Source: an uncultured Clostridia bacterium (lineage in GTDB: Bacteria; Bacillota; Clostridia; Christensenellales; UBA1242). Taken from it: a stretch of DNA of 64,000 nucleotides. The first letter of the stretch is position 1, and every line of letters starts with the position of its first letter. Shown piece after piece: positions 3,439 to 55,753 of the stretch. The stretch is from NCBI GenBank assembly GCA_944345705.1, contig CALVML010000005.1, positions 11,282 through 75,281 of the forward strand, given 5' to 3'. Under the pieces are notes generated by a model. The model worked only from the letters and a program-made list of their open reading frames with translations, had not been told where the DNA came from and searched no databases. A program made the position numbers and the translations under genes.

Positions 3439-3676
3439 TATATTCCTCTTATCTTAAGTTAATTATAACATTTTTATTTATAGTAGTCAAGAGTCAATAA
3501 AAACAATTCAAAAATTGATAATTTTTGCAAAAACAAGAAAAATCAACAAAAAAATACATAAATCGAAAATCAAAAAAGCTTTAAAATTTAATAATTATTA
3601 AATCTATTTGACTTTTAAATAAAAATTATTAAAATTATCTTTGTAAGATTTTATGCAAAGAATTTAAGGAGAAAAG

Positions 3677-23625: not shown

Positions 23626-24783
23626 TTATACAACACTATTCAGTAGGTTGATAGCATCTTCTTTAGCTTGTGGATAAAGATGTCCATAAGTTTCAATTAC
23701 CTGTTCTTCACGATCGCCAATAAGTTCGGCTATGACCTTTGTATTTATGCCTAAATGTATCAGCAAGCTTACATAAGAATGCCTAAATCCATGAGGAGTT
23801 ATGGAGGATACATTGGCGTTATTAATATCCTTGCGCAATTGCCTTCTAATTGTATTTTCAGAAAGAGGAATATCTCCGCCGAATAAGAATTTATTTGAAA
23901 TATTATTTTTTTGTTTCCATTTTTTATACTCTATAATTTTGCTAGCCAATATATCTGGAATTTTTTTATGTACGATTTTATAATTTTTTGTAGCTTTAAT
24001 TTCAGGAGCACTAGATTTTTTCCCTTCTAAAGATTTATTTATAGTTATTTGATTGTCTACTATATCATTATCTGCAAGAGCTCTAATTTCGTTAAACCTT
24101 GCTCCTGTATACATAAATGTTGCCCACATTGTATTCCATAAAATATCATCAACTGAACTTATAAATTTATTAAAAGTATCAATATCCCAAAAATTTATTT
24201 CTTTTTTTAGTTCTTTATTTTTTGGTATTTTTATAGTTTTGAACCTATTAGGTATATCATATATATTTTCGCAGTATTCAAGAAAAGTTTGAAAAGTTAT
24301 TCTTATTTTTGATAGGTATTCCCAAGCGTAAGTTTTGTTTGTCTTTTTATTTTTTAAATTCCATATATAGTTTTGCCATTCAACTAAATCAGCTTTAGTA
24401 ATTGATTCTATGCTTCGTTTTGAAAAATATGGTGTTATAAATCTTAAAAAAATATGTTCTTTATCATACACTGTACTAGATGCATTATTTGTTTTACAAT
24501 CTTTTAGATATAAACTAAGAACGTCATCAAAAATTATGTGCTTTGTAGGTTTTACTATTTTATGGTTAGCAGTATAATCAACGAAAGCTTGTTGAGCTTC
24601 TTTTTTTGTCTTAAAACCAGAAAGTCTTTTTTGCTTTTCTCCGTCATACTCCATAATTCTAAATCTAACTGACCATAATCTTCGCTCAATTTTGCCACCA
24701 CAAATTTTGCATCTATCATCTTTTGTGGCAGACACATTTCTTTTGCAATTAGGGCAGTATTTAGCCTGTTCAAAACTTGCCAT
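23626..24783 (-). CDS. int: tyrosine integrase with N-terminal zinc ribbon and arm-binding-like domain
   Basis: C-terminal catalytic region ARFNEIRAL...TPHGFRHSYVSLLIHLGINTKVIAELIGDREEQVIETYGHLY (R, HxxR, Y). N-terminus CPNCKRNV...CKICGGK, then WSVRFRIMEYDGEKQKRLSGFKTKKEAQ. Adjacent to attL. Confidence 0.92.
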   Translation of the reverse strand: MASFEQAKYCPNCKRNVSATKDDRCKICGGKIERRLWSVRFRIMEYDGEKQKRLSGFKTKKEAQQAFVDYTANHKIVKPTKHIIFDDVLSLYLKDCKTNNASSTVYDKEHIFLRFITPYFSKRSIESITKADLVEWQNYIWNLKNKKTNKTYAWEYLSKIRITFQTFLEYCENIYDIPNRFKTIKIPKNKELKKEINFWDIDTFNKFISSVDDILWNTMWATFMYTGARFNEIRALADNDIVDNQITINKSLEGKKSSAPEIKATKNYKIVHKKIPDILASKIIEYKKWKQKNNISNKFLFGGDIPLSENTIRRQLRKDINNANVSSITPHGFRHSYVSLLIHLGINTKVIAELIGDREEQVIETYGHLYPQAKEDAINLLNSVV

Positions 24784-39478: not shown

Positions 39479-40837
39479 ATGATAATAGTTGATAAAGATA
39501 CAATAGCTACTCCAAGTTTAATCACAAAATGGATAGCCAAGCACATAGAACTTTATAAAAAGTTTACAAAAAATCATGATTATTACAATGGTAAGCATGA
39601 AATTTTAGATTTAGAGAAAGAAGATAAACCTAACAATAAGACTGTTATAAATCTTGCTAAATACATAACAGTCATGGCTACTAATTATCTCGTTGGTAAA
39701 CAAGTCGATTATAGCTATAATGGTGAGCAGGGGAAAGAAACATTTGACAAGATAATGGACTTATACAAGAGACAGTCAATGCCTATGCATGACAAATTGA
39801 TGGCAAAAACAATGTCTATATCTGGTCTTAGTTATGAATTAGCTTATATGTCAAGTGATGAAAAACCCGTGCCTAAGGTGGCGGATATAAGCGAGTATGA
39901 TGCAGAGATTATATGCGACAACACTGTAGAACATAATTGTTTATATGGGGTCCATTTTTATAAGGCAGATGACGATAAAACTATAATAGAACTCTATGAT
40001 AGTACATACAAAACAACTTATCAAGCAGGAGCAAACTTTGTCAACCCTAAACAAGTTGGTAAGCCTGAAGCACATGGATTTGACAGAGTGCCGATAACCG
40101 AGCTTAAAAATAACGACGAGATTCAAGGCGATTTTGAACAAAATATAAAGGCTATTGACTCATATGAAAAGATATTCGCTGAACAAATAAATGATATTGA
40201 AGATTTTAATGACGCAATACTCATGTTATATAATACCAATTTTTATCAAGGTGATCAGAAAGAGTTTGAAGATAGACGAAAACAACTAAAGAAAGATAAA
40301 ATTCTAGAATTTACTTCAAAGGAGCAATCTGCAGCATGGCTTACTAAAATAATGGATCAGAGTAAAATAAGTGTTCTCGCTTCTGCGTTAAGGGCAGATA
40401 TACATGCTACAAGTTTTGTACCTAATATGACTGATGTAAACTTTGCAAACAACTCAAGTGGTGTTGCTATGCAATATAAATTAATAGGATTTGAGGCTCT
40501 TACAAGCGAGAAACAGACATTCTTTGAAAAATGCTTAAGGCGAAGGTTAAAACTTTTTGCAAGTGCGTTAAAATTGTTAGGTGGGCAGGAAATTAATGTT
40601 CAAGACATAACCATTACGTTTAATCGTTCTCTTCCACGCAACGATGTCGAGATGGCAAGTATTGTATCGCAGGTAGATAATCGAAATATTATTGACAAAG
40701 AAACTTTAGGCAAACAATTTTCTTTCTATAACGAAGATGTAAAGAAAAACTTAGAGAAGGAAAAAGAAGAAAATCCACAAATCGATTATGCTAGCGTTAA
40801 TAATCCAGGTCTTTATTCTTTCGGTGGTAGCTTTTAA
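39479..40837 (+). CDS. portal protein (SPP1 gp6-like)
   Basis: 452 aa, lying directly between terL and the MuF-like gene. The call rests on order and size; only general resemblance was judged by eye. Confidence 0.7.
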   Translation: MIIVDKDTIATPSLITKWIAKHIELYKKFTKNHDYYNGKHEILDLEKEDKPNNKTVINLAKYITVMATNYLVGKQVDYSYNGEQGKETFDKIMDLYKRQSMPMHDKLMAKTMSISGLSYELAYMSSDEKPVPKVADISEYDAEIICDNTVEHNCLYGVHFYKADDDKTIIELYDSTYKTTYQAGANFVNPKQVGKPEAHGFDRVPITELKNNDEIQGDFEQNIKAIDSYEKIFAEQINDIEDFNDAILMLYNTNFYQGDQKEFEDRRKQLKKDKILEFTSKEQSAAWLTKIMDQSKISVLASALRADIHATSFVPNMTDVNFANNSSGVAMQYKLIGFEALTSEKQTFFEKCLRRRLKLFASALKLLGGQEINVQDITITFNRSLPRNDVEMASIVSQVDNRNIIDKETLGKQFSFYNEDVKKNLEKEKEENPQIDYASVNNPGLYSFGGSF

Positions 40838-42459
40838 TGGCAAATCGACTTGCAGATATTTTTGCAGATCTTGAAAGTCAGCTTATATCAAATCAAAGGG
40901 CTTTATTTCAAAGTTATCCAAACTCGTCGCTCTCAGCTGTTGAAAACTTCCAAATGAATATGCTGGCAAATCAAAGCATGCTAGAACAGGTAAATGTACA
41001 AGCTGTCAACAATGCTTATCGTCAAGCTACTATTTATATGAATGACACGATAACTAAAGGCTATAATAGAGGTGTATCAAGTGTTGCGAGTCAGCTTGAC
41101 ACTGACATTAACAATAATGAAAATGAGCGTGCTGTGGCTTTAAAAAACAATGCAGACAGTGTAATTGCACGCATGTGCCGTATAGCGTTATCTTCTGCTA
41201 TGGGTGCATTTTCTGGTATTGTCAGTGCCGTTTCTGTATACAATCAAGCACAAGACTTATATCAAGCTGTAGACCAAGCACAATCGCAATATCTTGAAAA
41301 GGGTATTGTAGGGAGTGTTAACACAAATGGCGCTCAAACAAATATTGAAACCTTTGCAGACATTGTTGAAGGGGAATTTGACCATAATGCAACACTTACG
41401 GGTGAAGGACATGCTAGAGATGAGACTGGTAATTTTTATGTTGTAGTTACCGCTCATGTCGGCTGTTGTGAAAAATGTGCGAAATGGGAAAACCTGGTTC
41501 TAATTGACGATTGGAAAGCAAATGGTCAACCTGATGGAGTGCATCCGTTATTAAGTGAAGCGGTGAGTCAGGGCTTGTTGCACCCAAATTGCAGGCATAG
41601 GTTTAGAGTACCCTTTAAAGGTGAGGAGAAAAAACTTAAAGGCGATTATCACGAAACATGGACAGCCGAACAAAACAGGAGACAATATCAAGCGGAGCAG
41701 AAACAACGGCGTTATGAAAGGGAAATACGCAAATATAAAAGGCTAGAACAGGGTAGTTTAACTCAGAGCGAACAGTTAAAAGCACACCAAAAAGTACTTG
41801 AATATCAAAAAAAGCAACGAGAGCATATAAGAGCAAGCAATCAATTAGATGGTGTTAAACTTTTCAGACAATATGAAAGAGAGCGTATAGGTGGCGAAAC
41901 AAAACCGCAAGTATCACCAGAGATGCCTATATCTCTAAAAAGTAGTAATGGCTCATCACAATCTGGTGAGAGCGCCATTATAAGCCATGATCGTTATAAA
42001 TTGGATAATCTTGATAACGATTTAAGCGCGACGGAAGATTATATTTCTTCGCTTGACAAAGAACATAGTTTTATATTTACCGAAGATGGCGACGTCTATG
42101 GAGTTGAGGGTAATGAGAATTCTGTTGATCCGCAAATAGTTGGAGAAGACAAGCTTATAGGCTCAGTCATAACACACAATCACCCATATGATGAACTTGC
42201 TCCAAGCAAAGAGGATCTTGAATTTATGATAACTCATAGTATCAAGGAATTAAGAACGGTTGACAAGAATTATACTTATATATTAAAATTTAATGGTAAA
42301 TTATCTTCTCAAGAGATATTAAATTTATATCAAGAAACTTTTTTTGAAGTTGGAGATGATATGGTATACAATGGACTTAAAGGCGATGCCGCTCATTTTA
42401 TACTTGAAAGATTAAAGGACAAGGTGGAAGGATTATATTATGTCAGAATTAAGAGATAG
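40837..42459 (+). CDS. MuF/SPP1 gp7-like minor head protein fused to a C-terminal RadC/JAB-like domain
   Basis: MuF core ...CCEKCAKWENLVLIDDW...LLHPNCRHRF, then a basic coiled-coil linker, then a C-terminal about 145 aa containing GSVITHNHPYDELAPSKEDLEFM (HNHP-x5-PS-x-ED spacing as in RadC HNHPSGxxxPSxxD). Confidence 0.75.
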   Translation: MANRLADIFADLESQLISNQRALFQSYPNSSLSAVENFQMNMLANQSMLEQVNVQAVNNAYRQATIYMNDTITKGYNRGVSSVASQLDTDINNNENERAVALKNNADSVIARMCRIALSSAMGAFSGIVSAVSVYNQAQDLYQAVDQAQSQYLEKGIVGSVNTNGAQTNIETFADIVEGEFDHNATLTGEGHARDETGNFYVVVTAHVGCCEKCAKWENLVLIDDWKANGQPDGVHPLLSEAVSQGLLHPNCRHRFRVPFKGEEKKLKGDYHETWTAEQNRRQYQAEQKQRRYEREIRKYKRLEQGSLTQSEQLKAHQKVLEYQKKQREHIRASNQLDGVKLFRQYERERIGGETKPQVSPEMPISLKSSNGSSQSGESAIISHDRYKLDNLDNDLSATEDYISSLDKEHSFIFTEDGDVYGVEGNENSVDPQIVGEDKLIGSVITHNHPYDELAPSKEDLEFMITHSIKELRTVDKNYTYILKFNGKLSSQEILNLYQETFFEVGDDMVYNGLKGDAAHFILERLKDKVEGLYYVRIKR

Positions 42460-42700
42460 AAGAGAGTTCTATGTCGCAATGGTGAAGAGGCAGATTAACA
42501 GAAAAAGAGATAGCTTTTACATTTTAGATGAGGAAGCCTATATAAATGAAATGGTGAACTTTTTTATGGGATTTGAGGAAAAAGAGAAAGAAGCGTATCC
42601 TGGTGGCATAGGTGTTACCAAAGAAATGCTTAGAATTAGAGATGAAAAACTTCTTCGGATGGAAGAGATAATGAAAAAACATTTGATTAAAAAAGAGTAA
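42440..42700 (+). CDS. hypothetical protein (86 aa) coupled to the MuF-JAB gene
   Basis: Overlaps the MuF gene by 20 nt and is followed by a long hairpin. No motif recognised. Confidence 0.5.
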   Translation: MSELRDRREFYVAMVKRQINRKRDSFYILDEEAYINEMVNFFMGFEEKEKEAYPGGIGVTKEMLRIRDEKLLRMEEIMKKHLIKKE

Positions 42701-42748
42701 GAAAGATCTAGAGTAAGATAGATCTTACTCTTTCTTAATATTTTGCCC
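42695..42748 (+). terminator. extended imperfect hairpin / possible terminator between the MuF unit and the scaffold gene
   Basis: GAGTAAGA (42711-42718)-TAGA-TCTTACTC (42723-42730). Outer AAGAAA/TTTCTT pairing, then AATATTTT. Confidence 0.4.
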
Positions 42749-42826
42749 TAAACACGGCGTAAAACTGTTTCGTTAGGCGCGTTAAGTCAAATTTGCCATG
42801 TGGGCGTAAAACACAAGGAGAAAAAA

Positions 42827-43360
42827 ATGTCTGAACAGTTAAATCAAGACACAGGGGTTGATATTTCTATCGACTCACAAGAGAACAAAGAAAACAAGCA
42901 AGCAGAGGGAAAGGTTGAAAAATCATTTACACGTGATGAAGTTAACAAAATGATTGCAACCGAGAAGAAAAAGGCAATAGCTGAATATGAAAGGCTTGCA
43001 AAGATGACGGAAACGGAGCGCACAAAAGAGCGTATGGCTCAAAAAATTAGAGAACGCGACAAAGAAAGAGCTGATTTTGAAGCGGAGAAGAAAGCGTTTG
43101 AAATTGAAAAAATGAAGATGCAAACATCAAAGGAACTTATAAATCGAAAGTTACCTGCCGAGTTCGCATCTTTTTTAGTTACAGATAACGCTGAAACAAC
43201 AAAACAAAATCTTGATAGCTTTGAAAAGATGTTTCGTACTTCAATTGAGAGTGCCGTTGCTGACAAAATACGTGGCAAAAATCCGCCAATGACATCGACA
43301 ACGAAAGTGGACAGCAAGTCATCCACATTAAAAACAAAGGCTTGGAACAAAAATAAATAA
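42827..43360 (+). CDS. scaffolding protein
   Basis: Start at the ATG after AAGGAGAAAAAA. K/E-rich coiled coil immediately upstream of the capsid gene. Confidence 0.6.
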   Translation: MSEQLNQDTGVDISIDSQENKENKQAEGKVEKSFTRDEVNKMIATEKKKAIAEYERLAKMTETERTKERMAQKIRERDKERADFEAEKKAFEIEKMKMQTSKELINRKLPAEFASFLVTDNAETTKQNLDSFEKMFRTSIESAVADKIRGKNPPMTSTTKVDSKSSTLKTKAWNKNK

Positions 43361-43374
43361 TAAAGGAGAAAATA

Positions 43375-44331
43375 ATGGCAAACACAATAAATTATGCTGA
43401 AAAATGGCAACCAGAGATACTAGAAATCTTAAATCAAAACACAATTACCAGTCCATTTATTGCTGATGCAGATTCAGTTGAATGGACAGGAGCTAAAACA
43501 CTTCATTTTACACAAGCTGCAACAAGCGGTTTTAAGGCACATTCAAGAGATGGTGGCTGGAACAAAGGTAACGTAACTCAATCTGATGTAGATTATACAA
43601 TCGAACATGATCGTGATATTTCTTTCCTTGTAGATAGAATAGATGTTGACGAATCTAATGGAACTGCATCTATAGATAATGTTTCAAAAGTATTTACTGC
43701 AACTCAAGAAGCTCCAGAAGTTGACGCACGTTTCTTTGAGCGAGTATATAACGCTGCGAGTACAAATACTCTTGCTGAAGAACTTGATGTGTCTACTCTT
43801 ACAAAGGATAATGTTCTTTCGACTATTAAAAACTTTATGCTTAAAGGCAAACTTCGTAGATATATAGCAAGAGGCTCACTTATTGCATATGTTACAAGTG
43901 AAATTATGAATATGCTTGAATTATCAACAGAAAGTAAGCTTAAAGTTGAACTTACTACTATTGCAGACGGCGGAATAGGTATTGAAACTCGTGTAACCAA
44001 TATTGACGGAGTTTATCTCTTTGAAGTAATTGATGATGAGAGATTCTACTCTAAATTTGATTATACAGATGGGTTCGAAGCGGCATCAGATGCAAAAGCA
44101 CTTGCTATCGTTTTTGCTTCAACAGATGTTGTTAAAACTGTTCCTAAAACAAATGCAATCTATATCAAGAAAGCAGGCGAGCACACTGTAGGTGATGGTG
44201 ACTGGTATGCAAACCGTTCTATGTGGGATACTTTTGTTTTCCCTAACGGCAAAGATGGCAAGATTGAAGGTATTTATGTAATTACCAAGAAAGCGACAAC
44301 ATCGACTGAACCAGAAGATAATTTAGAATAA
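43375..44331 (+). CDS. major capsid protein
   Basis: 318 aa, strong RBS AAAGGAGAAAA, follows the scaffold and is followed by a good terminator. The call is mainly positional. Confidence 0.65.
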   Translation: MANTINYAEKWQPEILEILNQNTITSPFIADADSVEWTGAKTLHFTQAATSGFKAHSRDGGWNKGNVTQSDVDYTIEHDRDISFLVDRIDVDESNGTASIDNVSKVFTATQEAPEVDARFFERVYNAASTNTLAEELDVSTLTKDNVLSTIKNFMLKGKLRRYIARGSLIAYVTSEIMNMLELSTESKLKVELTTIADGGIGIETRVTNIDGVYLFEVIDDERFYSKFDYTDGFEAASDAKALAIVFASTDVVKTVPKTNAIYIKKAGEHTVGDGDWYANRSMWDTFVFPNGKDGKIEGIYVITKKATTSTEPEDNLE

Positions 44332-46846: not shown

Positions 46847-49445
46847 AAATACACAAGATTGGATATGCAAATTTCAGTTTTTTGATAGAAACACAGGACA
46901 GTGGTCGAGTATGTTTGCGCCACAAATTGGTTTCGGTGAAACGTTTGTTCAAGACGAAACAACTGATGATGGAAGTTTAAATTTTAAATGGCGTAGCAGT
47001 TCAAAGCCTAATATACAACACATGCAGTGGGCAAGAATATTACATTTTCATAAGGGTGACAATATGGTGGCAACATATGACGAGAATGGACTACCAATAA
47101 ATCACAATCAATATGTTATAGGTGACTTTCAGATGGCACAAAGCAAGGATAAGTCCTATTGGCTTGTCAAACTTTCTCTACTTGAGCCGATAGAAAGAAT
47201 GCGATTTGTTGTTGGCGAAACTCTTGCCTATACCAATCAAACATCCAAGACTGTCACTGATGGCTCTGGTAATACTGTCACATATGTTAAAGATCCATAT
47301 AATCATTTAACAGCCCTTGAGAGATTTTTAAAAGTCACACCTGCGAACTGTGATAATTATGGTGAAGGTTATAATCCACATAACAATAAATCATGGTATA
47401 ATAGGATAAAGATACTTGATAAAGACTTTTTGCAAAATATACCATTTGATAGCGACTCATTTACTGAGCCAGACCTGTATACAATTTTATTCAAGTATGA
47501 CAAAAGCACAGGAAGAACACCTTGTATGTATTTCGATATGGATCCAGTTACCGATTTACCGCGAAATCTTGATAGAGATGAGTATATACTTAAATTTCTA
47601 CGCCAAGACGGATTTGATAAACCTGTTCTAAACCTATCAGACATAACCGCAAACGCACAAAATGTGACTTATAAATCAAGCCTAGCAAACTTTGCTACAG
47701 GAGTTGTTAGCAATGTTGAAAATCTTGTCACGGGGAGTAATACAGCATTTCCTTTCTACAAATTATATGCTGTACCAGAAATAAATAATAATGTAAGAAA
47801 TTTATCAAATTATAACACTGTTGATAGTGGATGGGGAATTAAATTTCCATTTCCAATAAAAAGAGTTAATAAAATTATTAGAAGGACAGCACTTTTTTGG
47901 GAAAATCTTAATTCTGTAGGTAATGGTGTCATTAGTAGAAGAATTAGTGTTGATGATATTGACTTAACAAGCAACTGTTATGAGATGCAAGAATATAATA
48001 GTTTGGATGAAGAAGAATATTCAGAAGATGAACTATTTTATTATAAAGAAGGTGACAATTTTGTTTATATTAAGAATTATTATTGTGTAAATAATCCAAA
48101 GCTTGACGAAATTATCGAACCATATTTTTACTATATAGAATACGAACCATTAATTAACCCTAAATTAGAAATTGGTGATAACGAATACTCAACTATTTTT
48201 AATCAAGTAGATAGCCAGGTGGATAGCACTAAATATAATAAATTTTTGAATCGGTATTTATTATCAATGGGGAAATCTGATTTAACTATAATTAAAAAGC
48301 ATTATCATCCAGAGGAAATGTATGAAATCGGTAGTCTAGTTTACGATGAAGAAAATAACAAAAAATATATGATAACAGGTTCTTCATATCAAAATCTGAA
48401 TTTTGAACTTCTTGCCGTTTACCAGCTTAATGAGAACCATTTTAGAAGGAATAATTCCGTTAAGGCAAATAAAGCAATAAGACAAAATGCTTCTATAGAT
48501 TATTCTAATATAAAAAACAGAAAAGTTTCTATTATAAATAATATAAATTTAAATTCTAATAGTAATAATAATTCTAAATTCAGATTTATTTTTAATTCCA
48601 TCGTGAATGATGATTTAGATATTCCACAATGTGTACTTATTAATGCTTCATCGAACCTATTGAATTCAAATAATGAAAATGTAGAAATGAACAAAAAATT
48701 TGTTTTGCCTCTACTAAGTACGGCAAATGATAATGAAATTATATTCGTGTTTTGCATTCAAGATAATGCAATGATAGGCAAAGACAAATATTTTGATGAT
48801 AAAAGTTATTCTGGTGCAGGCGGTGTAAGAAGATATTATCCTATAACAAGAATTTCCAAACAGGTTGATGTATTATATACAGATCCATTTGGTTGTATTG
48901 ATATAATGGAATTAGATCTATGTTCTAATCCACAAGATATGACCGATATTGAAATAGGAAATGATAATGTAACAGAAACTACTTTTAATATGTATCTTGA
49001 CAATTATAAAAGGCTAGCTTGTGTCACTATATCCGATGATGAAGCAAATATTTTGAAAGAAAACTCTATCATAAATTTTGGATTAAATATACTAAAAGAT
49101 TCAATTGAAAAACCAATAATATCTTATATTGTTAAATTCAATAGTGAAAATATAATATTAACCAATAAATTATTATTATCTAGTCTGAAAAAAGTAGTAT
49201 TTAGTAATTTAATTGTAAAACTTTATACTTGTAATGTTTCGATATATGATGACATAGATTATATAGCTAGTTATCAAGCAGAATGTTCTTTAATTGATAA
49301 TGGTGTAAAAATATCTTTTGCAAATGGAATTCAAAATGTTAAATCTTTAGTCTTATGGAGTGATAATGATGTGTTATTATTGGCGAAAAATGTAGATGAA
49401 GACGAAATTTATAATGGTTATTACATAATTTCACTTGACTGTTAA
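46821..49445 (+). CDS. large tail/baseplate structural protein (874 aa)
   Basis: ATG after GGGGGAGAG. Beta-rich and aromatic-rich N-terminal two thirds, then a very N/I/K-rich C-terminal third. No peptidase or lysozyme motif seen. Confidence 0.5.
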   Translation: MNMSITGVKNTQDWICKFQFFDRNTGQWSSMFAPQIGFGETFVQDETTDDGSLNFKWRSSSKPNIQHMQWARILHFHKGDNMVATYDENGLPINHNQYVIGDFQMAQSKDKSYWLVKLSLLEPIERMRFVVGETLAYTNQTSKTVTDGSGNTVTYVKDPYNHLTALERFLKVTPANCDNYGEGYNPHNNKSWYNRIKILDKDFLQNIPFDSDSFTEPDLYTILFKYDKSTGRTPCMYFDMDPVTDLPRNLDRDEYILKFLRQDGFDKPVLNLSDITANAQNVTYKSSLANFATGVVSNVENLVTGSNTAFPFYKLYAVPEINNNVRNLSNYNTVDSGWGIKFPFPIKRVNKIIRRTALFWENLNSVGNGVISRRISVDDIDLTSNCYEMQEYNSLDEEEYSEDELFYYKEGDNFVYIKNYYCVNNPKLDEIIEPYFYYIEYEPLINPKLEIGDNEYSTIFNQVDSQVDSTKYNKFLNRYLLSMGKSDLTIIKKHYHPEEMYEIGSLVYDEENNKKYMITGSSYQNLNFELLAVYQLNENHFRRNNSVKANKAIRQNASIDYSNIKNRKVSIINNINLNSNSNNNSKFRFIFNSIVNDDLDIPQCVLINASSNLLNSNNENVEMNKKFVLPLLSTANDNEIIFVFCIQDNAMIGKDKYFDDKSYSGAGGVRRYYPITRISKQVDVLYTDPFGCIDIMELDLCSNPQDMTDIEIGNDNVTETTFNMYLDNYKRLACVTISDDEANILKENSIINFGLNILKDSIEKPIISYIVKFNSENIILTNKLLLSSLKKVVFSNLIVKLYTCNVSIYDDIDYIASYQAECSLIDNGVKISFANGIQNVKSLVLWSDNDVLLLAKNVDEDEIYNGYYIISLDC

Positions 49446-49477
49446 CTTTATTTATTATAAACTTAAACAGAGGTATT

Positions 49478-49780
49478 ATGAATACAAAAAAAATAATAAT
49501 GTTAAGTTTTATTTTGATTTTCTTAATTTTAATTTTAGCAGGTCTTGGTCATGCTTTTTCGTTTATTGTACAATCATATAATAGTATTTTTTATGATTTT
49601 GGTACAGGAGAAAGCGCAAATCTTTCTGATGAGAATTTAAAACTAATTTGGAGTTGGTACGATTCTTATTATATTTTATCTATCATAGCTATTATATTAT
49701 TATCATCTTTAATAATTTTAGTTTCATATCTTTTTATTAAAGAAATAGTATATTATTATAAACAGAAGAAACTTAAATAG
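49478..49780 (+). CDS. small 2-TM membrane protein, paralog A
   Basis: MNTKKIIMLSFILIFLILILAGL...YYILSIIAIILLSSLIILVSYLF. RBS AGAGG. Confidence 0.6.
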   Translation: MNTKKIIMLSFILIFLILILAGLGHAFSFIVQSYNSIFYDFGTGESANLSDENLKLIWSWYDSYYILSIIAIILLSSLIILVSYLFIKEIVYYYKQKKLK

Positions 49781-49788
49781 AGGTGATT

Positions 49789-50088
49789 ATGAATACAAAA
49801 AAAATAGTAATATTAAGTTGTGTTTTAATTTTCTTAATATTGATTTTAGCAGGGCTTGCCTATGATTTTTCATTTATTATACAATCATATAACAATATTT
49901 TTTATGATTTTGATACCGGTGAAAGTTATACCAATTATACAGATGAGGAGTTAAAACTGTTTTGGAGTTGGTACGATTCTTATTATATTTTGTCTATCAT
50001 AAGTATTATATTACTATCAGTATTAATAATTTTAGATTTATATCTTCTAATGAAAGAAATAGTGTCTTATTGCAAGCATAAGAAATAA
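49789..50088 (+). CDS. small 2-TM membrane protein, paralog B (tandem duplicate of 49478-49780)
   Basis: About three quarters identical to paralog A by hand alignment. The duplicated unit (about 311 nt) includes the upstream ACTTAAAYAGAGGT. Confidence 0.6.
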   Translation: MNTKKIVILSCVLIFLILILAGLAYDFSFIIQSYNNIFYDFDTGESYTNYTDEELKLFWSWYDSYYILSIISIILLSVLIILDLYLLMKEIVSYCKHKK

Positions 50089-50115
50089 TTGACTACTGAA
50101 ATAAAAGTGATTGTT

Positions 50116-50667
50116 ATGAAAAAGAAGTTAACTTATTTTTTTGTAATTTCTACATCTATATTATTAATTGTTTTAATAGGGTTACTTTCCTATCACTTAG
50201 ATTACTTTGTAAAATATGAAATTGGGGGAAGTGATTTTTTGCAAATGATTTTTATTTTCATATTTTTGTTAATCGCATTTATACTATATTGTGTTATACT
50301 CTATTGTTTCATAAACAAAAGAAATGTTCCAATATTAACATTTCTAAAATTTATAATTCTAGTATTTTTATTAATTAGTTTTATTTTAACTTTGATTTAT
50401 ACTATTGATAATTATCATTTTTATTTAATTGAGGAGTCTTTGAGTTGGAATGATATATTTTTAAATAGCGAGTTAACAACTATTATGTTAACTATCTTAT
50501 TTGCATCAATCTTTTTATTTATGGCTTTTGTTTTTGTTTTAATACAAATTATTCTTGATATAAAAAACAAAAATTATCCACAAATAAACTTAGTTAAACT
50601 TCGTCAATCTCGCAAAGACAAACGCCTTAAACGTTTACAAGATAAAATAGATAAGTTAGATGAGTAG
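50116..50667 (+). CDS. 4-TM membrane protein with basic coiled-coil tail (183 aa)
   Basis: Start at ATG 50116. Four long hydrophobic segments, then KLRQSRKDKRLKRLQDKIDKLDE. Confidence 0.55.
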   Translation: MKKKLTYFFVISTSILLIVLIGLLSYHLDYFVKYEIGGSDFLQMIFIFIFLLIAFILYCVILYCFINKRNVPILTFLKFIILVFLLISFILTLIYTIDNYHFYLIEESLSWNDIFLNSELTTIMLTILFASIFLFMAFVFVLIQIILDIKNKNYPQINLVKLRQSRKDKRLKRLQDKIDKLDE

Positions 50668-50697
50668 ATTTTGTAAAATCTTATTAAATATTTTAAT

Positions 50698-50726
50698 TTG
50701 ACTATTTAATATTAAAAGGTTACAAT
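50698..50726 (+). promoter_or_regulatory. promoter of the 50733 membrane-protein gene (possibly leaderless mRNA)
   Basis: TTGACT (50698-50703), 17 nt, TACAAT (50721-50726). The ATG lies 7 nt after the -10 and there is no SD at normal spacing. Confidence 0.4.
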
Positions 50727-50732
50727 ATATAT

Positions 50733-51221
50733 ATGAAAAAGAAAAAAGCTTATTATATATACTCATTTTTTATCTGTGTATTATCAATTGTAAATATAAT
50801 CATAAACATTTCTCCTTTAAAATATGCTATATATGTTTATAATGTAGTGAGAAGAGATTATGATATTGGTCTCTATATTTATGGCATTGTTATGGCTATT
50901 AGTTTAGTTATAATTATATTAAATATAATTGGGATGTGGTTATACAAGAAAGATAAAAAGGTAAAAATTAGTATTGTTATAAGTATATTTTCTATAATAT
51001 TTCTTTTATTTATATTTATTCAAGCTATATATTTTATAAATTCCACAATAAATCTTTTGAATCAATACGAAGGTTCAACGGCTTCTCATTTATATGTACA
51101 TTATTTACAACTTGCATTCTCTGCTATATGCATTATTCTTGAGATATTTAAACTTGTCATTATATCTAAATCAGCTCGCAAGCCTAAAGAGAATGCCGTC
51201 AAGCTAGATGAGGTAAAATAA
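50733..51221 (+). CDS. 4-TM membrane protein (162 aa)
   Basis: MKKKKAYYIYSFFICVLSIVNIII... with four hydrophobic segments. Confidence 0.55.
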   Translation: MKKKKAYYIYSFFICVLSIVNIIINISPLKYAIYVYNVVRRDYDIGLYIYGIVMAISLVIIILNIIGMWLYKKDKKVKISIVISIFSIIFLLFIFIQAIYFINSTINLLNQYEGSTASHLYVHYLQLAFSAICIILEIFKLVIISKSARKPKENAVKLDEVK

Positions 51222-51302
51222 CGAATAAAGGGAAAAGTAGGTATTATTTTTTAAATATTTGCATAAAAAGTGCAAAAATCGCAAAAATAACTCTGTAAAA
51301 CA

Positions 51303-51331
51303 TTGACAATTATCATGTTTTTGTATAAAAT
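51303..51331 (+). promoter_or_regulatory. promoter of the ATPase/RloB-like cassette
   Basis: TTGACA (51303-51308), 17 nt, TAAAAT (51326-51331), with a TG two bases upstream. The ORF-track TTG start is actually this -35 box. Confidence 0.55.
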
Positions 51332-51347
51332 GATAATGGAGGTTAAA

Positions 51348-52604
51348 ATGTTAATAGATTTTAAATTTAAAAACTTTATGTCTTATAGAGATGAAACTTT
51401 ATTCACAATGGAAGCAAATGTAGATAATAGTCACGTAGACAATTTGATCCAAAATGAAAATAAAAGATATTCAAAGGTTAGGGTGATGTATGGGGCGAAT
51501 GCTTCTGGTAAATCATCATTTATAAAGGCTTTAGATTTTGTTAATCAGTTTGTATTTATTTCTAATGTTGTGCTTAATACAAATCAAATAAGAATTGTTC
51601 CATATAGATTTCGGGATAATTATCTTAATTATCCTTCAGAATTTTGTATTGATTTTGTTAAAAATGGAAAAAGATACAGGTATTCTTTTTCATGTAAAAG
51701 AGATATGGTCATCAATGAACGCCTTGATGTTTTTTATTCAGCTAAACCAACTAATATTTTTGACAGGTATGATACTGAACACTTCAAAGTAAATAAAAAT
51801 TTTATCAACATAAAAACATTAGAAGATAAACTTGACCCTTATAAATTATTTTTAACAACGGTTGCAAGTAAACAAATAGATGTTGCTAAACAAGTTGTAG
51901 AATTTTTGTTGAACGATCTATTTATTCTTCGTAGTCCAGATATAAATTTTAATTTTAAATTTATATTTGATAATAATGACTTTGAAGATTTTAAAAGGTT
52001 TTGTTTAAAGATTTTAGGGAATGCTGATATAAATATTACTGATTTTGATATAGAAGTAAAAGCTTTAAAAGATTTAGATAATGCAGATAATTTTTTAAGA
52101 CTCTATAATGAACAAACAAAATCAGAACTACTTAGAAATACAAGCATTTTTAACATAAGAACATTGCACAAGATTAAAAATGGCGATAAAGATGAAGCTT
52201 ATGAGTTAAACATGAAACAGGAATCTTTAGGAACACAGCAATTATTTAATCTAGCTCCAATTTTATATTATGTTTTTAGAAATGGTAAAACTTTAATAGT
52301 AGATGAGTTAGACAAGAGTTTGCATCCTTTACTTGTTCAGTATATTATTAAGATGTTCTTAGATAAAGATATAAATACAAAAAATGCTCAGTTAATATGT
52401 AATACTTTCGATACAAATCTACTAGATCTAGATTTGTTAAGGCGAGATGAAATATGGTTTACTGAAAAGGATTTTAAAACAGGGGTTTCTGAACTTTATT
52501 CATTATCGGACTTTTCTATTAGAAAGAATGAAAATGTGAACAAAGGATATATGCTAGGTCGATATGGAGCAATCCCTTTTATAAAAGGAGTATTCGATGT
52601 ATAG
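51348..52604 (+). CDS. ABC-type (AAA_21/AAA_15-like) ATPase of a two-gene defence-like cassette
   Basis: Start at the ATG after GGAGG. MLIDFKFKNFMSYRDE, Walker A YGANASGKSS, signature-like ESLGTQQLF, Walker B/H-loop TLIVDELDKSLHP, C-terminus RRDEIWFTEKD...GRYGAIPF. Confidence 0.8.
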   Translation: MLIDFKFKNFMSYRDETLFTMEANVDNSHVDNLIQNENKRYSKVRVMYGANASGKSSFIKALDFVNQFVFISNVVLNTNQIRIVPYRFRDNYLNYPSEFCIDFVKNGKRYRYSFSCKRDMVINERLDVFYSAKPTNIFDRYDTEHFKVNKNFINIKTLEDKLDPYKLFLTTVASKQIDVAKQVVEFLLNDLFILRSPDINFNFKFIFDNNDFEDFKRFCLKILGNADINITDFDIEVKALKDLDNADNFLRLYNEQTKSELLRNTSIFNIRTLHKIKNGDKDEAYELNMKQESLGTQQLFNLAPILYYVFRNGKTLIVDELDKSLHPLLVQYIIKMFLDKDINTKNAQLICNTFDTNLLDLDLLRRDEIWFTEKDFKTGVSELYSLSDFSIRKNENVNKGYMLGRYGAIPFIKGVFDV

Positions 52605-53214
52605 GCAACGGATAAAGAAATTTAGAAATCCAATTATATATTTAATAGTGGAAGGTAAAAATAAGACAGAGCGGAATTATTTGTCATATTTCAAAAATAA
52701 AAATAACAAATTTAAATTATATATAGTTGATAGTGTAGCAACTGACCCAGAAAGTATGATAAAAAAAGCCATAGAAGTCTATCGTAAAAATGATTTAAAT
52801 GAAATGAATGGTGATAAAGTTTTTTGTTTAATTGATTTAGATTTGTCCGCAGAAAGATATAAAAAAGTAAACATGATGCTTCAGAAGAATGTATATAAAA
52901 AGGTTAATGTAATTTTTTCAAATCCATGCTTTGAAATTTGGCTTTTGTATCATTTTACCGAGTATCCTAAACCCGAGAAATGTTCTAGTGATGTAAAAAA
53001 ACAAGTAAAAAAATATATTAAAAATTATGAAGAAAATTACGACAATTATGATATCATAGGTATTTATGAGAAATATATTACAGCAATAAATAATTCTGAC
53101 AGGAGAAATCGACTTTATATAGAGAATAATATATCTAAACATGAAAGAAATCCGTATACGGAAGTGCAAAATCTTATAGACTTATTCAATAAATACAATG
53201 AGCAGGACAAGTAG
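52597..53214 (+). CDS. RloB-like (TOPRIM-related) protein
   Basis: IIYLIVEGKNKTERNY, VFCLIDLD and FSNPCFEIWLLYHF match RloB-family hallmarks (EG..TE..YF, D.D, SNPCFE.WLLLHF). Overlaps the ATPase gene by 8 nt. Confidence 0.75.
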   Translation: MYRQRIKKFRNPIIYLIVEGKNKTERNYLSYFKNKNNKFKLYIVDSVATDPESMIKKAIEVYRKNDLNEMNGDKVFCLIDLDLSAERYKKVNMMLQKNVYKKVNVIFSNPCFEIWLLYHFTEYPKPEKCSSDVKKQVKKYIKNYEENYDNYDIIGIYEKYITAINNSDRRNRLYIENNISKHERNPYTEVQNLIDLFNKYNEQDK

Positions 53215-53226
53215 TCTTGCTTTTTT
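53202..53226 (+). terminator. intrinsic terminator closing the ATPase/RloB-like cassette
   Basis: GCAGGAC (53202-53208)-AAGTA-GTCTTGC (53214-53220, one G-U), followed by TTTTTT. Confidence 0.55.
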
Positions 53227-53242
53227 AATTTAAGGAGAAAAT

Positions 53243-55753
53243 ATGAAAAACAATAAAGTTTTATTGTCATTCGATATGAATGGCAATTTTTTATCTATTC
53301 AAGAAGATAGCAATAAAATCTACGCAGGAAGTGTGGCGAGTGTTGAGTATTATGTCGATTTTACCGAAAACTTATCTGCAAATGATTTAGTTTATATTTC
53401 ATTTACTAGACCAGACAATCAAAAGCTTGCTCCATTAATTTGTGAGCGAATACTTGATAATAGATTTAAATTGTTATCTACGGGGGAAGAACTCGATTAT
53501 AATTTGACAACAACCGAAGAAATGACTATCAATGTTATAATTAAAACTAGAGATATTATAACTAATGTTTCAGCCATTAAATCGCAAGCAAGTGTTGTTG
53601 TTAATGTTTATCCAGGAAGTCAATTTGTTCCAGGAATAGTTGATGATAGTGTTGTAACTAATCTTGAAGAACATTTGAATGATATTGAAAAATACACAAT
53701 TAAAAAATATAATGTGAAAGACATTCAAAATGGATTAGTCTTGATACCTTATGCAGAAAACGGAATAAAAGAAGCTCCTGCAATATACATGGGTTATTCG
53801 CATTTAGTTAAATTTTATAATTGGGAATATGAAGAATATCGTTCAACAAATGTTCAAGGAAATTTATTTGTATTTGCAGAAAATGTAGATTCCAATATAA
53901 TAAAGCAATATGAGTATTTATTTACAGATAATAAAATATATGCTAGAACAGTGATTCAAGAGACAGTAACCAATGTTACAACCACCATTACAACCATCGA
54001 TGCTGGTGATTTTTATGATATTTCACTTGTCAATGATACTTTTTTGGATTATACAGATGGTAAAATTACTGAGCATAACACAAGTGGCACTGCACATTAT
54101 GATATCAGATCTCTTATTTCACAACTTACAAGCCAAGTTACTGAGAATACGAGTGATATCGCAAGCAATTCAAATAGAATTGACGCTAATGCTACTAATA
54201 TAAGCAATTTGACTATACAAGTCAATAGCAATTCTAGTTTGATTCAAGATACAAGAAACAATCTAGCAAGTAATTATTATACTAAACAGCAAACTTATAC
54301 AAAAGACGAAGTCAAGAGTTTGCTTGGAACGGCGGCAGGCTTCCAGTTTGTAATTGTAGAAGAATTGTCATTGCAGGGCGATCCAACAAAAATATATCTT
54401 GTGCCCGTATCGAAATTAACACAGTTAACCGAAAATGATCCACAAACAGAAGTAGATGATTATTATGACGAATATATTTGGCTTGCTTCTGAGAATAGGT
54501 ATGAGTGTATCGGTTCAACGCGGATCAATATAGATGACTATGTTACAAACGAAGACTTTGAAACAGCGCTAAACACCAAATCTGATACTACATATGTTGA
54601 CGAACAGCTTGATTTAAAAGCTGATGCTACAGAAGTTGATGATGTTAAAAATAATGTGAGTGGATTAGAAACGTCTATTTCAAGTTTACAGACGCAGATA
54701 AATAATAATATAGCAAATATTACCGATTTAGAGAGCAATAAACTGGATAAAAATCAAGGTGTAGCAAATGCTGGCAAGGTGATGCTTATTGGCGAAGATG
54801 GCAACTTAATTCCACAATCCCTAGCGGATGGAGGTACAACTGTAATTGTGAATGGGGAAGCACAAACCACATGGGATGCAGATACTAAAGCAAATGTGTC
54901 TTCACTTTCAGCAGTTGCAACGAGTGGCTCTTATAGTGACCTAACTGATAAACCTACTATTCCAACAGATAACACAGAACTTACAAATGGCGCGAATTAT
55001 GCTACAGTTTCACAGATCCCAACTAACAATAATCAATTAACTAACGGAGCAAATTACGCTACAAAATCAGAAGTATCATCCACTTACGCTACAAAATCAG
55101 AAGTATCATCCACTTATGCGACTAAAACTGAGTTGACAACCGAGATAAGCAATAGGACTACTGCGGATAGTAATTTGCAAGGTCAAATTAATGAAAAGGC
55201 AAATAATACAAATCCTCAGTTTTATAATACAGCTAACTTTAATCCTACCACAGGTAATACAGAAAGGGGAGTTATAATTTCTCCAGGTGCCTATACACAA
55301 CCTCGAATAACATTTGTTGGAAATTTAGGAGCACAATTATATATAACAATGGGTGAAAGTGATTATGACGGAAATTATATTTCTTGCTCATCGGAATTTC
55401 GTTCTAGTAGTATATACACTAATAGTTTATCTGTCAATGGACGTGAACCACGTCTTATATTTGACCAGGGTACAACATCAAATGGTTATTGGATTAAATA
55501 TACTGACAGTACTATGGAACAACATTTTACAGTTACTGGTTCACGGGGAGATGTAACACCACATAATTTTCTTCAAGACTTTAGGGGTATTCCTATAGTT
55601 CATAGAACAATTGATATAGATGGTAGTGGTAATGCCAGTCAATTAAGAGGATGGAATATTTCAAACTTAACAAATACCGGTTTTAATATATATACTACTG
55701 ATATTTCGGGGGCAGAAACATCTATGATTTCTGCCTATGGATATTGGCAATAA
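53243..55753 (+). CDS. tail fibre / receptor-binding protein (836 aa)
   Basis: Central N/S/T-rich coiled-coil region (TENTSDIASNSNRIDANATNISNLTIQVNSNSS), repeated ..NGANYAT.SEVSSTYATKSE.. units, and a globular C-terminus. Confidence 0.7.
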   Translation: MKNNKVLLSFDMNGNFLSIQEDSNKIYAGSVASVEYYVDFTENLSANDLVYISFTRPDNQKLAPLICERILDNRFKLLSTGEELDYNLTTTEEMTINVIIKTRDIITNVSAIKSQASVVVNVYPGSQFVPGIVDDSVVTNLEEHLNDIEKYTIKKYNVKDIQNGLVLIPYAENGIKEAPAIYMGYSHLVKFYNWEYEEYRSTNVQGNLFVFAENVDSNIIKQYEYLFTDNKIYARTVIQETVTNVTTTITTIDAGDFYDISLVNDTFLDYTDGKITEHNTSGTAHYDIRSLISQLTSQVTENTSDIASNSNRIDANATNISNLTIQVNSNSSLIQDTRNNLASNYYTKQQTYTKDEVKSLLGTAAGFQFVIVEELSLQGDPTKIYLVPVSKLTQLTENDPQTEVDDYYDEYIWLASENRYECIGSTRINIDDYVTNEDFETALNTKSDTTYVDEQLDLKADATEVDDVKNNVSGLETSISSLQTQINNNIANITDLESNKLDKNQGVANAGKVMLIGEDGNLIPQSLADGGTTVIVNGEAQTTWDADTKANVSSLSAVATSGSYSDLTDKPTIPTDNTELTNGANYATVSQIPTNNNQLTNGANYATKSEVSSTYATKSEVSSTYATKTELTTEISNRTTADSNLQGQINEKANNTNPQFYNTANFNPTTGNTERGVIISPGAYTQPRITFVGNLGAQLYITMGESDYDGNYISCSSEFRSSSIYTNSLSVNGREPRLIFDQGTTSNGYWIKYTDSTMEQHFTVTGSRGDVTPHNFLQDFRGIPIVHRTIDIDGSGNASQLRGWNISNLTNTGFNIYTTDISGAETSMISAYGYWQ
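55055..55114 (+). repeat. perfect 2 x 30-bp tandem duplication inside the fibre gene
   Basis: TACGCTACAAAATCAGAAGTATCATCCACT twice (YATKSEVSST x2), followed by a degenerate third copy. Confidence 0.9.

Follow-up and report, generated by a model that had tools for sequence, protein, structure and literature searches.

The closest described systems to the locus reported here are the MuF polymorphic toxins of temperate phages, in which a protein with a MuF-superfamily N-terminus is encoded after the portal gene, bears a variable enzymatic C-terminus that is exchanged among close relatives, and is followed by an open reading frame (ORF) of small size (Jamet et al., 2017; PMC5576092). For SPP1 gp7, a prototype MuF head protein, presence in the capsid and release with the DNA have been established, and the products of immunity genes downstream of the MuF toxin Apk2 neutralise it (IapK/Aph1; PMC12226406). 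We analysed a locus that shares the design of the MuF toxins, located at 40837–42700 in a 64,000-nucleotide stretch of DNA from an uncultured Clostridia bacterium (contig CALVML010000005.1; the whole stretch is called the window below). It comprises a gene for a protein of 540 amino acids (aa), in which a MuF-superfamily head module is fused to a JAB-like, predicted metal-hydrolase domain, and an overlapping ORF of 86 aa. In our view it is reasonably likely that the locus belongs to a temperate, siphovirus-like prophage and encodes a polymorphic effector of the MuF type (‘MuF toxin’), with the 86-aa protein as its cognate partner. To our knowledge, MuF toxins are recognised but barely tested, the (p)ppApp synthetase type being the sole one characterised so far. 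An earlier note on the same DNA had proposed a MuF–JAB-like effector with a small partner, and this proposal is supported by the fold, the catalytic residues, the swapping of the domain and the conservation of the small ORF.

The design of the locus is already known from the MuF toxins (Jamet et al., 2017), from JAB toxin modules (Zhang et al., 2012; PMC3482391) and from RadC domains in polyvalent proteins (Iyer et al., 2017; PMC5512222). The novelty lies in the domain clade, which is covered by no model of Pfam, NCBIfam or PHROGs and is not among the toxin domains in the available text and supplements of the MuF toxin survey, from which the terms ‘JAB’, ‘RadC’, ‘PF04002’ and ‘DUF4329’ are absent. 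The near-exclusive tie of this clade to MuF and its small partners is also new.

The JAB-like domain and its catalytic motif

The C-terminal domain spans aa ~385–540 (41989..42456, forward strand). An exhaustive HMMER search of 1.84 billion representatives returned 280 proteins at E ≤ 1e-3, each representing a cluster at 50% identity and mostly derived from metagenomic assemblies. Conservation was counted in an alignment of 150 domain copies. The motif VITHNHPYDELAPSKEDL, which begins at aa 444, contains H447-N-H449-P-x6-S457-x2-D460 (42175..42216), equivalent to the JAMM signature HxH-x7-S-x2-D, and together with an upstream glutamate it completes the JAMM pattern E...HxH-x7-S-x2-D: E409, H447-N-H449, seven residues and S457-K-E-D460. 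H447 and D460 are present in all 150 aligned copies, E409, N448 and H449 in 149 each, S457 in 144 and P450 in 136. Glu409 (codon 42061..42063) is the predicted JAMM general base, and the next residue opens a DSSP strand.

The earlier note had likened the spacing HNHP...PS..D to that of RadC and had asked for a check of the upstream Glu and the His/His/Asp metal site. The full JAMM motif is indeed near-invariant, the Glu, His, His, Ser and Asp positions being conserved in 144–150 of the 150 copies; the proline before the serine, on the other hand, is not a family-wide feature. The family consensus at this position is Phe (131/150), and the Pro of P-S-x-x-D is confined to a subclade that includes the window protein. 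A word-index protein search with aa 377–540 returned nothing, which reflects its limit of sensitivity, since a homologue 97% identical over the domain (P0001) is in the same collection, as is P0002; P0001 was recovered both with the full-length query and in the exhaustive search. A reading of ‘HNH’ as an HNH endonuclease was rejected: H, N and H are adjacent residues here, and the structural matches are of the JAB type and not of the beta-beta-alpha-Me type.

Comparison of the fold with RadC and Tox-JAB

AlphaFold2 with a 45-sequence alignment gave a model of the C-terminal domain with a pLDDT of 95.5; on the single sequence of the domain, the pLDDT was 40. In the model, Glu409 lies at the start of a strand, the HxH at the end of a strand and the S..D at the N-terminus of the next helix, a placement that fits the JAB arrangement. 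Relative to RadC, the model adds a strand and a helix at the N-terminus, and two helices plus a strand at the C-terminus. Among PDB entries, Foldseek ranks RadC of Chlorobium (2QLC) first, with a probability of 0.99, an E-value of 7.6e-3 and a TM-score of 0.37 (query) or 0.47 (target), and also lists the AMSH-like JAMM protease Sst2 (probability 0.90), the TM-scores across matches being 0.33–0.47. With a confident model, a RadC structure as the top match and a JAMM protease in the same list, the JAB-like character put forward in the earlier note is supported, and the domain did not model as an unrelated fold. Sequence searches of the PDB with the domain and with its profile gave only chance matches, including one named ‘Prp8’, probably the Prp8 intein, and a His-tag.

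The best fold matches in BFVD are ‘minor capsid proteins’ of uncultured gut phages from the same family (TMq 0.57–0.84). Next are 3R of Frog virus 3 (FV3), F317L of African swine fever virus (ASFV) and EsV-1-200, all from nucleocytoplasmic large DNA viruses (NCLDV), and p25 of Xanthomonas phage Xop411, followed by RadC, MPN and deubiquitinase proteins. As a side observation, the uncharacterised proteins FV3 3R, IIV3 229L, ASFV F317L, EsV-1-200 and Bathycoccus and Heterosigma virus proteins match with E-values of 1e-6 to 1e-3, better than RadC. The NCLDV matches are probably the viral set called Tox-JAB-2 by Zhang et al. (2012), who assigned NCLDV and Xanthomonas-phage proteins to Tox-JAB-2/DUF4329 (PMC3482391). 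Xop411 p25 is itself a weak DUF4329 match (E 8.3e-5, below the Pfam cut-off), and hhalign of our domain against it is not significant (P 0.079).

At the profile level, hhalign against E. coli YicR and YeeS singly gives probabilities of 66–72%, and against a four-sequence alignment of YicR/YeeS-type RadC 84.6% (P 6.8e-6, ~38 columns); the latter alignment is shallow (Neff 1.5), the search for YeeS homologues having given only near-identical enterobacterial RadC proteins. Pfam RadC is matched by five of 45 family members at E ≤ 0.1, and a single member, the four-copy protein P0121, exceeds the threshold of that model, with 28.8 bits. None of the 45 matches DUF4329 (PF14220) or any Pfam Tox-JAB model, and two match Prok-JAB at E ~0.08.

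We compared these features with the two closest groups of JAB domains. RadC (PF04002; E. coli YicR and YeeS; 2QLC) shares HNHP...S-x-x-D with our domain, and the subclade of the window protein even has the RadC-type P-S-K-E-D. RadC is also the best match of solved structure, and our domain, too, occurs on mobile elements and in polyvalent proteins with ADP-ribosyltransferase (ART) domains; RadC domains of phage and plasmid polyvalent proteins have been described (Iyer et al., 2017; PMC5512222). However, the family consensus is F-S and not P-S, and the S-G after HNHP is lacking in the family. Tox-JAB-1 and Tox-JAB-2 (DUF4329) are C-terminal toxin modules accompanied by an immunity gene; their JAB fold is deaminase-like and bears E, HxH, S and D, and the activity predicted for them is that of a nuclease, not of a ubiquitin peptidase (Zhang et al., 2012; PMC3482391). 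They differ in that the Tox-JAB-2 motif is H[ST]H whereas that of our family is HNH, and in that the Tox-JAB families ride on Rhs, type VI or type VII secretion system toxins whereas our family rides on MuF. On the evidence of the model and these matches, we place the domain in what appears to be a distinct RadC-like clade within the JAB superfamily, outside both PF04002 and Tox-JAB-1/-2 in their present definitions.

The domain and the small ORF as one exchangeable cassette

The earlier note had raised the question of whether the C-terminal domain is swapped between related phages, and this is observed. The full-length homologues P0001 (92% identity) and P0002 (77%) keep the JAB-like domain. 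In three other relatives (P0003, L003 and L069), the MuF parts are 92–96% identical to that of the window, the C-terminus is ART-like, the small ORF is a different one, and the breakpoints are the same; P0003, for example, is 96% identical over 67% of the length and then continues into the ART-like C-terminus. The C-termini of P0003–P0006 and L069, proteins with up to 96% identity in the MuF part, are unrelated to the JAB-like domain and align with ADP-ribosyltransferase homologues that bear PF03496, direct Pfam support for the assignment in P0003 being weak (E 0.033). Farther relatives carry Ntox50 or EndoU domains at the same position, and PF03496, PF15542 and PF14436 are all seen among relatives.

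In a three-way DNA alignment, the window and L003 cease to be similar after ...CAAGTATCACCAGA and become similar again at CTTACTCTTT. The break falls directly after ...GGETKPQVSPE (window ~41921; aa ~362), and similarity is restored at the right arm of a hairpin (~42724). Within the enclosed cassette of ~800 bp (41922..42723, forward strand), which reaches as far as the hairpin’s left arm, lie a spacer, the JAB-like domain and the small ORF; cassettes of the ART type carry an unrelated ORF of 73–81 aa in place of the 86-aa ORF. The shared breakpoints therefore show that the domain and the small ORF are exchanged as one unit.

Codon comparisons also separate the cassette from its backbone. Between the window and L001, 223 of 356 MuF codons are identical, with 29 non-synonymous and 104 synonymous differences; in the JAB-like domain only 50 of 165 codons are identical (79 non-synonymous, 36 synonymous), and in the small ORF 30 of 86 (41 non-synonymous, 15 synonymous). 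The protein identities are accordingly 92% for the MuF part and ~52% for both the domain and the small ORF, which have thus diverged together. The comparison with L070 (its positions 3001–4861 against window 40837–42700) shows the reverse: 254 of 356 MuF codons are identical (34 non-synonymous, 68 synonymous), compared with 156 of 165 in the JAB-like domain (7 non-synonymous, 2 synonymous). Since the L070 cassette is far better conserved than its backbone, the cassette moves between backbones, and this codon pattern indicates a presumably recent transfer between diverged phages.

The position of the junction bears on another possible role of the domain, that of a self-processing or head-maturation peptidase which cleaves MuF, for instance near the conserved I-G-G junction, or another protein of the head, instead of being an effector directed at a second cell. 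Cleavage after Gly-Gly is typical of JAMM enzymes. A GG lies at aa 352–353, nine residues before the swap junction, and the linkers between the four copies in P0121 also contain GG (KGGxGSG). However, the same IGG junction carries ART-like domains in sister phages, so the GG is independent of the JAB domain and self-processing is unlikely. These sister phages assemble heads without a JAB-like domain, and a maturation protease would need no small partner that is swapped and diverges together with it. We consider a peptidase of this kind very improbable.

The partner ORF and its signals

The 86-aa ORF (42440..42700, forward strand) overlaps the 3′ end of the fusion gene by 20 nt (42440–42459). 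A Shine–Dalgarno-like GAAGGA (42427–42432) is located 7 nt before its ATG, and translational coupling is plausible because this sequence directly precedes the overlapping start. The same domain is present on five of the contigs that we examined (L001, L002 and L070–72), and each of these has an ORF of 85 or 86 aa with the same 20-nt overlap, and where the domain differs, the ORF is replaced with it; the overlapping ORF and its presence in relatives, both raised in the earlier note, are thereby confirmed. We also surveyed 64 loci of the wider family, 57 of them from IMG/VR. A small ORF (≤ 110 aa) adjacent to or overlapping the domain follows it in 58 of the 62 evaluable loci, and 34 of 63 downstream small ORFs fall into one single-linkage cluster with the pattern ‘GLDxN...KYG’. 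In one subclade (L045 and L049–L057, from IMG/VR), the partner is a Cys-rich, zinc-ribbon-like protein of 88 aa with CxxCxxC...C, and not a helical K/E-rich protein; the enzyme domain would then have two families of partners.

Could the 86-aa ORF instead be an unrelated small gene of the head module, or a non-coding artefact, and no functional partner of the C-terminal domain? The protein shows no family or meaningful match in Pfam, PHROG, NCBIfam or the PDB, and the profile of the distant ‘GLDxN...KYG’ ORFs scores it no higher than shuffled sequences, as would be expected on that explanation. Against it, the open frame and its overlap are kept in five of five contigs, its divergence to 52% identity matches that of the domain, it is exchanged together with the domain, its Shine–Dalgarno sequence stands at the right distance, and most family loci (58/62) have a small ORF in the same position. 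An unrelated or spurious ORF is thus highly improbable.

A terminator-like hairpin at 42692–42733 (forward strand) straddles the end of the cassette; it has an outer stem of 11 bp and an inner one of 4 bp, and a T-rich tail, TTAATATTTTG, comes after it. The folding free energy of the surrounding 121-nt stretch is −28 kcal/mol (z −2.6 against shuffles), and a pattern scan places a terminator-like site at 42710–42731; the hairpin described in the earlier note between this ORF and the scaffold gene is thus borne out both in the sequence and by folding. Its left arm belongs to the cassette, and its right arm lies in intergenic DNA conserved in L001 and L003. Judged by eye, the unrelated cassettes each seem to bring a left arm capable of pairing with this right arm, so that the hairpin may double as a marker of the recombination boundary.

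A strong sigma-70-like site was noted within the coding sequence of the JAB-like domain at 42260–42289, 150 nt before the partner ORF. It consists of TTGACA, an 18-nt spacer and TAAAAT (11/12), and the hexamers are also found in L001. Such a site could allow separate expression of the partner in lysogens; however, the conservation of the hexamers may only reflect coding, because the site lies in the conserved protein motif VDKNYxYILKF.

The MuF2 head module

The fusion gene (40837..42459, forward strand; taken from the ORF listing) matches PHROG 581, ‘minor head protein’, with an E-value of 3.8e-46. Its N-terminal module and basic linker comprise aa 1–356 (40837..41904). PF06152 (Phage_min_cap2) covers aa 3–331 and scores 104.9 bits, the cut-off being 26.3 (E 5.6e-30). 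The motif CCEKCAKWE starts at aa 210 and LLHPNCRHRF at aa 247, and the linker (aa 268–356, 89 aa) is helical and Q/R/K-rich, with 22 K+R, 13 Q and a pI of 9.9. The 540-aa ORF with these MuF motifs and basic linker had been reported in the earlier note, and its coordinates and motifs agree with the sequence.

The further designation as SPP1 gp7-like holds in part. PF06152 is ‘MuF2’ of the MuF superfamily, the muf genes of which follow the portal gene (Jamet et al., 2017; PMC5576092), and our protein shares with SPP1 gp7 and phage Mu GpF the superfamily, the gene position after an SPP1-type portal and the HPNCR-type motif. However, SPP1 gp7 and Mu GpF belong to PF04233 (MuF1), which is not the Pfam match of the 540-aa protein, and TIGR01641 (phageSPP1_gp7) gives no hit to it. 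Judged by these profile matches, the label ‘MuF’ is valid at the superfamily level only. SPP1 gp7 also lacks an enzymatic C-terminal domain, unlike the 540-aa protein.

Proposed mode of action

By analogy with the described systems, the MuF2 module would dock the protein on the portal, so that a few copies would be held inside the capsid and exit together with the DNA when the phage next infects; we infer packaging and exit from SPP1 gp7 and the MuF literature. The C-terminal module, in which E409, H447, H449, S457 and D460 are intact, is predicted to be a zinc-type hydrolase of the JAB/JAMM fold. This enzyme would act in the cytoplasm of the recipient, and its candidate substrates are nucleic acid, as proposed for RadC and Tox-JAB, or else a bond of the peptide or isopeptide type. 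The 86-aa protein, plausibly coupled to it in translation, would be the cognate partner, most likely an inhibitor or immunity protein that restrains the enzyme in the producer and protects lysogens. We assign it this putative role because of the co-swap, the co-divergence and the precedent of Apk2 and IapK.

Domain architectures and alternative effector roles

Among 77 representatives of 281–700 aa, PF04233 (MuF1) is found in 45, PF06152 (MuF2) in 19 and a portal fusion in one, so that ~83% of the mid-length family members are MuF fusions; P0173 (797 aa) is another portal fusion. None of the 77 has an Rhs, LXG or further classical module for toxin trafficking. Similarly, 49 of the 64 surveyed loci are MuF fusions, and the rest are mostly contig-end fragments or split genes. 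Large polyvalent proteins hold two to five copies of the domain, catalytically intact by their residues, together with ART domains. P0121, a metagenomic protein of 1232 aa, contains MuF, a DRAT-like ART and four tandem JAB-like copies; P0125 has the order MuF2, JAB-like copy, ART and JAB-like copy; P0132 and P0143 are polyvalent proteins of the same kind, with ART domains. The copies in P0121 are spaced by a repeated linker, KGGxGSGIxGHxT, and its Gly-Gly linkers might be processing sites.

These architectures also suit a different role with the same delivery: instead of a toxin that inhibits growth, the JAB-like domain would be an effector for anti-defence or host takeover. Injected with the DNA, it could take off a ubiquitin-like or cGAS-type conjugate, or cleave a nucleic acid or nucleotide used in defence, and the small protein would be a chaperone or temporary inhibitor and no immunity factor against sibling phages. 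The best 150 homologues are essentially phage MuF/portal fusions and polyvalent ART proteins (P0121, P0125, P0132 and P0143), tandem copies with intact catalytic residues exist, and MuF fusions and polyvalent proteins containing RadC have been read as early-injected effectors (Iyer et al., 2017; PMC5512222). The same authors, however, argue that RadC-type JAB domains are without the groove for the ubiquitin tail (PMC5512222). The PADLOC models, which should include defence JAB proteins, gave no JAB match, only three single-member matches to unrelated models, and the Prok-JAB matches are limited to the two members mentioned above. Moreover, the fast co-divergence with a coupled small ORF and the positional equivalence to ART, Ntox50 and EndoU are classic features of toxin–immunity pairs. 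We therefore regard an anti-defence role as possible but rather unlikely. Kinship with the JAB proteins of defence systems was rejected, PADLOC being without a JAB match.

A more specific form of this idea, which we regard as doubtful, is that a phage-restricted JAB clade, delivered in the capsid through MuF/portal fusions and polyvalent proteins and furnished with a dedicated inhibitor, hits a component of host defence or signalling. The target might be a conjugate of the ubiquitin-like or CD-NTase kind, or else nucleic acid of a defence system. If true, the locus would encode a virion-borne anti-defence enzyme, and the enzyme and its cognate inhibitor would be the first tractable genetic handle on the biochemistry of RadC-like JAB domains.

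Several observations weigh against the MuF toxin that we favour. The best 150 homologues are attached to phage MuF/portal modules only, never to Rhs, LXG or other toxin-trafficking modules, and this confinement is atypical for a polymorphic-toxin domain. Tandem intact copies are more in keeping with an effector injected to act on the host than with a classical toxin. As for the partner, hhalign of the 86-aa protein against the ‘GLDxN...KYG’ family gives only P = 0.011, and pairwise phmmer scores are 13–14 bits against 12–13.5 for the best of 4,500 decoys; by these scores, homology to the distant partner family would be borderline and suggestive only. Finally, the domain misses the Pfam RadC (PF04002) gathering score, with 15.8–18.2 against 22.1 bits, and the TM-scores of the model to RadC are modest (0.37 query-normalised, 0.47 target-normalised) because the extra elements flank the JAB core.

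As a MuF toxin, the locus would add an abundant effector domain family, of 280 clusters, to the MuF repertoire. The biochemical activity of RadC-like JAB domains has long been debated, both nuclease and peptidase having been proposed. A RadC-like version with a co-evolving partner offers a direct assay, through a toxicity and neutralisation phenotype, a complex for structure determination and catalytic mutants. The family also deserves its own label in phage genomes, where its current annotation is ‘minor capsid protein’.

Prophage setting and neighbouring genes

The fusion gene lies in the head module of an integrase-bearing prophage. The order of genes is small and large terminase, portal, 540-aa gene, scaffold and capsid, and the sequence from portal to MuF gene is also found in L001, L003 and L070. 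The SPP1-type portal gene (39479..40837, forward strand; PF05133 SPP1_portal, E 1.9e-78) is directly upstream, its end coinciding with the start of the fusion gene at 40837. The scaffold gene (42800..43360, forward strand; PF14265, DUF4355/Gp46-type, E 1.4e-17) lies downstream, as does the capsid gene, and the true start of the scaffold gene is likely the ATG at 42828. A tyrosine integrase is encoded on the reverse strand at 23626–24783, and the phage is therefore taken to be temperate. The prophage region has a G+C content of ~32%, and non-phage ORFs lie to its left; among the genes on that side is an ORF of 2888 aa (12054–20720, reverse strand), presumably for a surface or adhesin-type protein of the host. 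A megablast search with 39479–44331 matched none of 50,697 GenBank phage records, among which there is thus no close sequenced phage. Among 185,579 species genomes, the sole match is a metagenome-assembled genome of an uncultured Clostridia bacterium, on a 187-kb contig (L069).

In the tail module, a low-G+C island extends from 48000 to 54000, with a G+C fraction of 0.23–0.27 against ~0.33. Four small ORFs at 49478–51221 in this island have no Pfam match. They are followed by an AAA_21 ATPase (51303–52604; PF13304, E 3e-29) and then an RloB-like gene (52597–53214; PF13707, E 3e-33), a pair which we take to resemble AbiL/OLD-type anti-phage pairs carried as prophage cargo.

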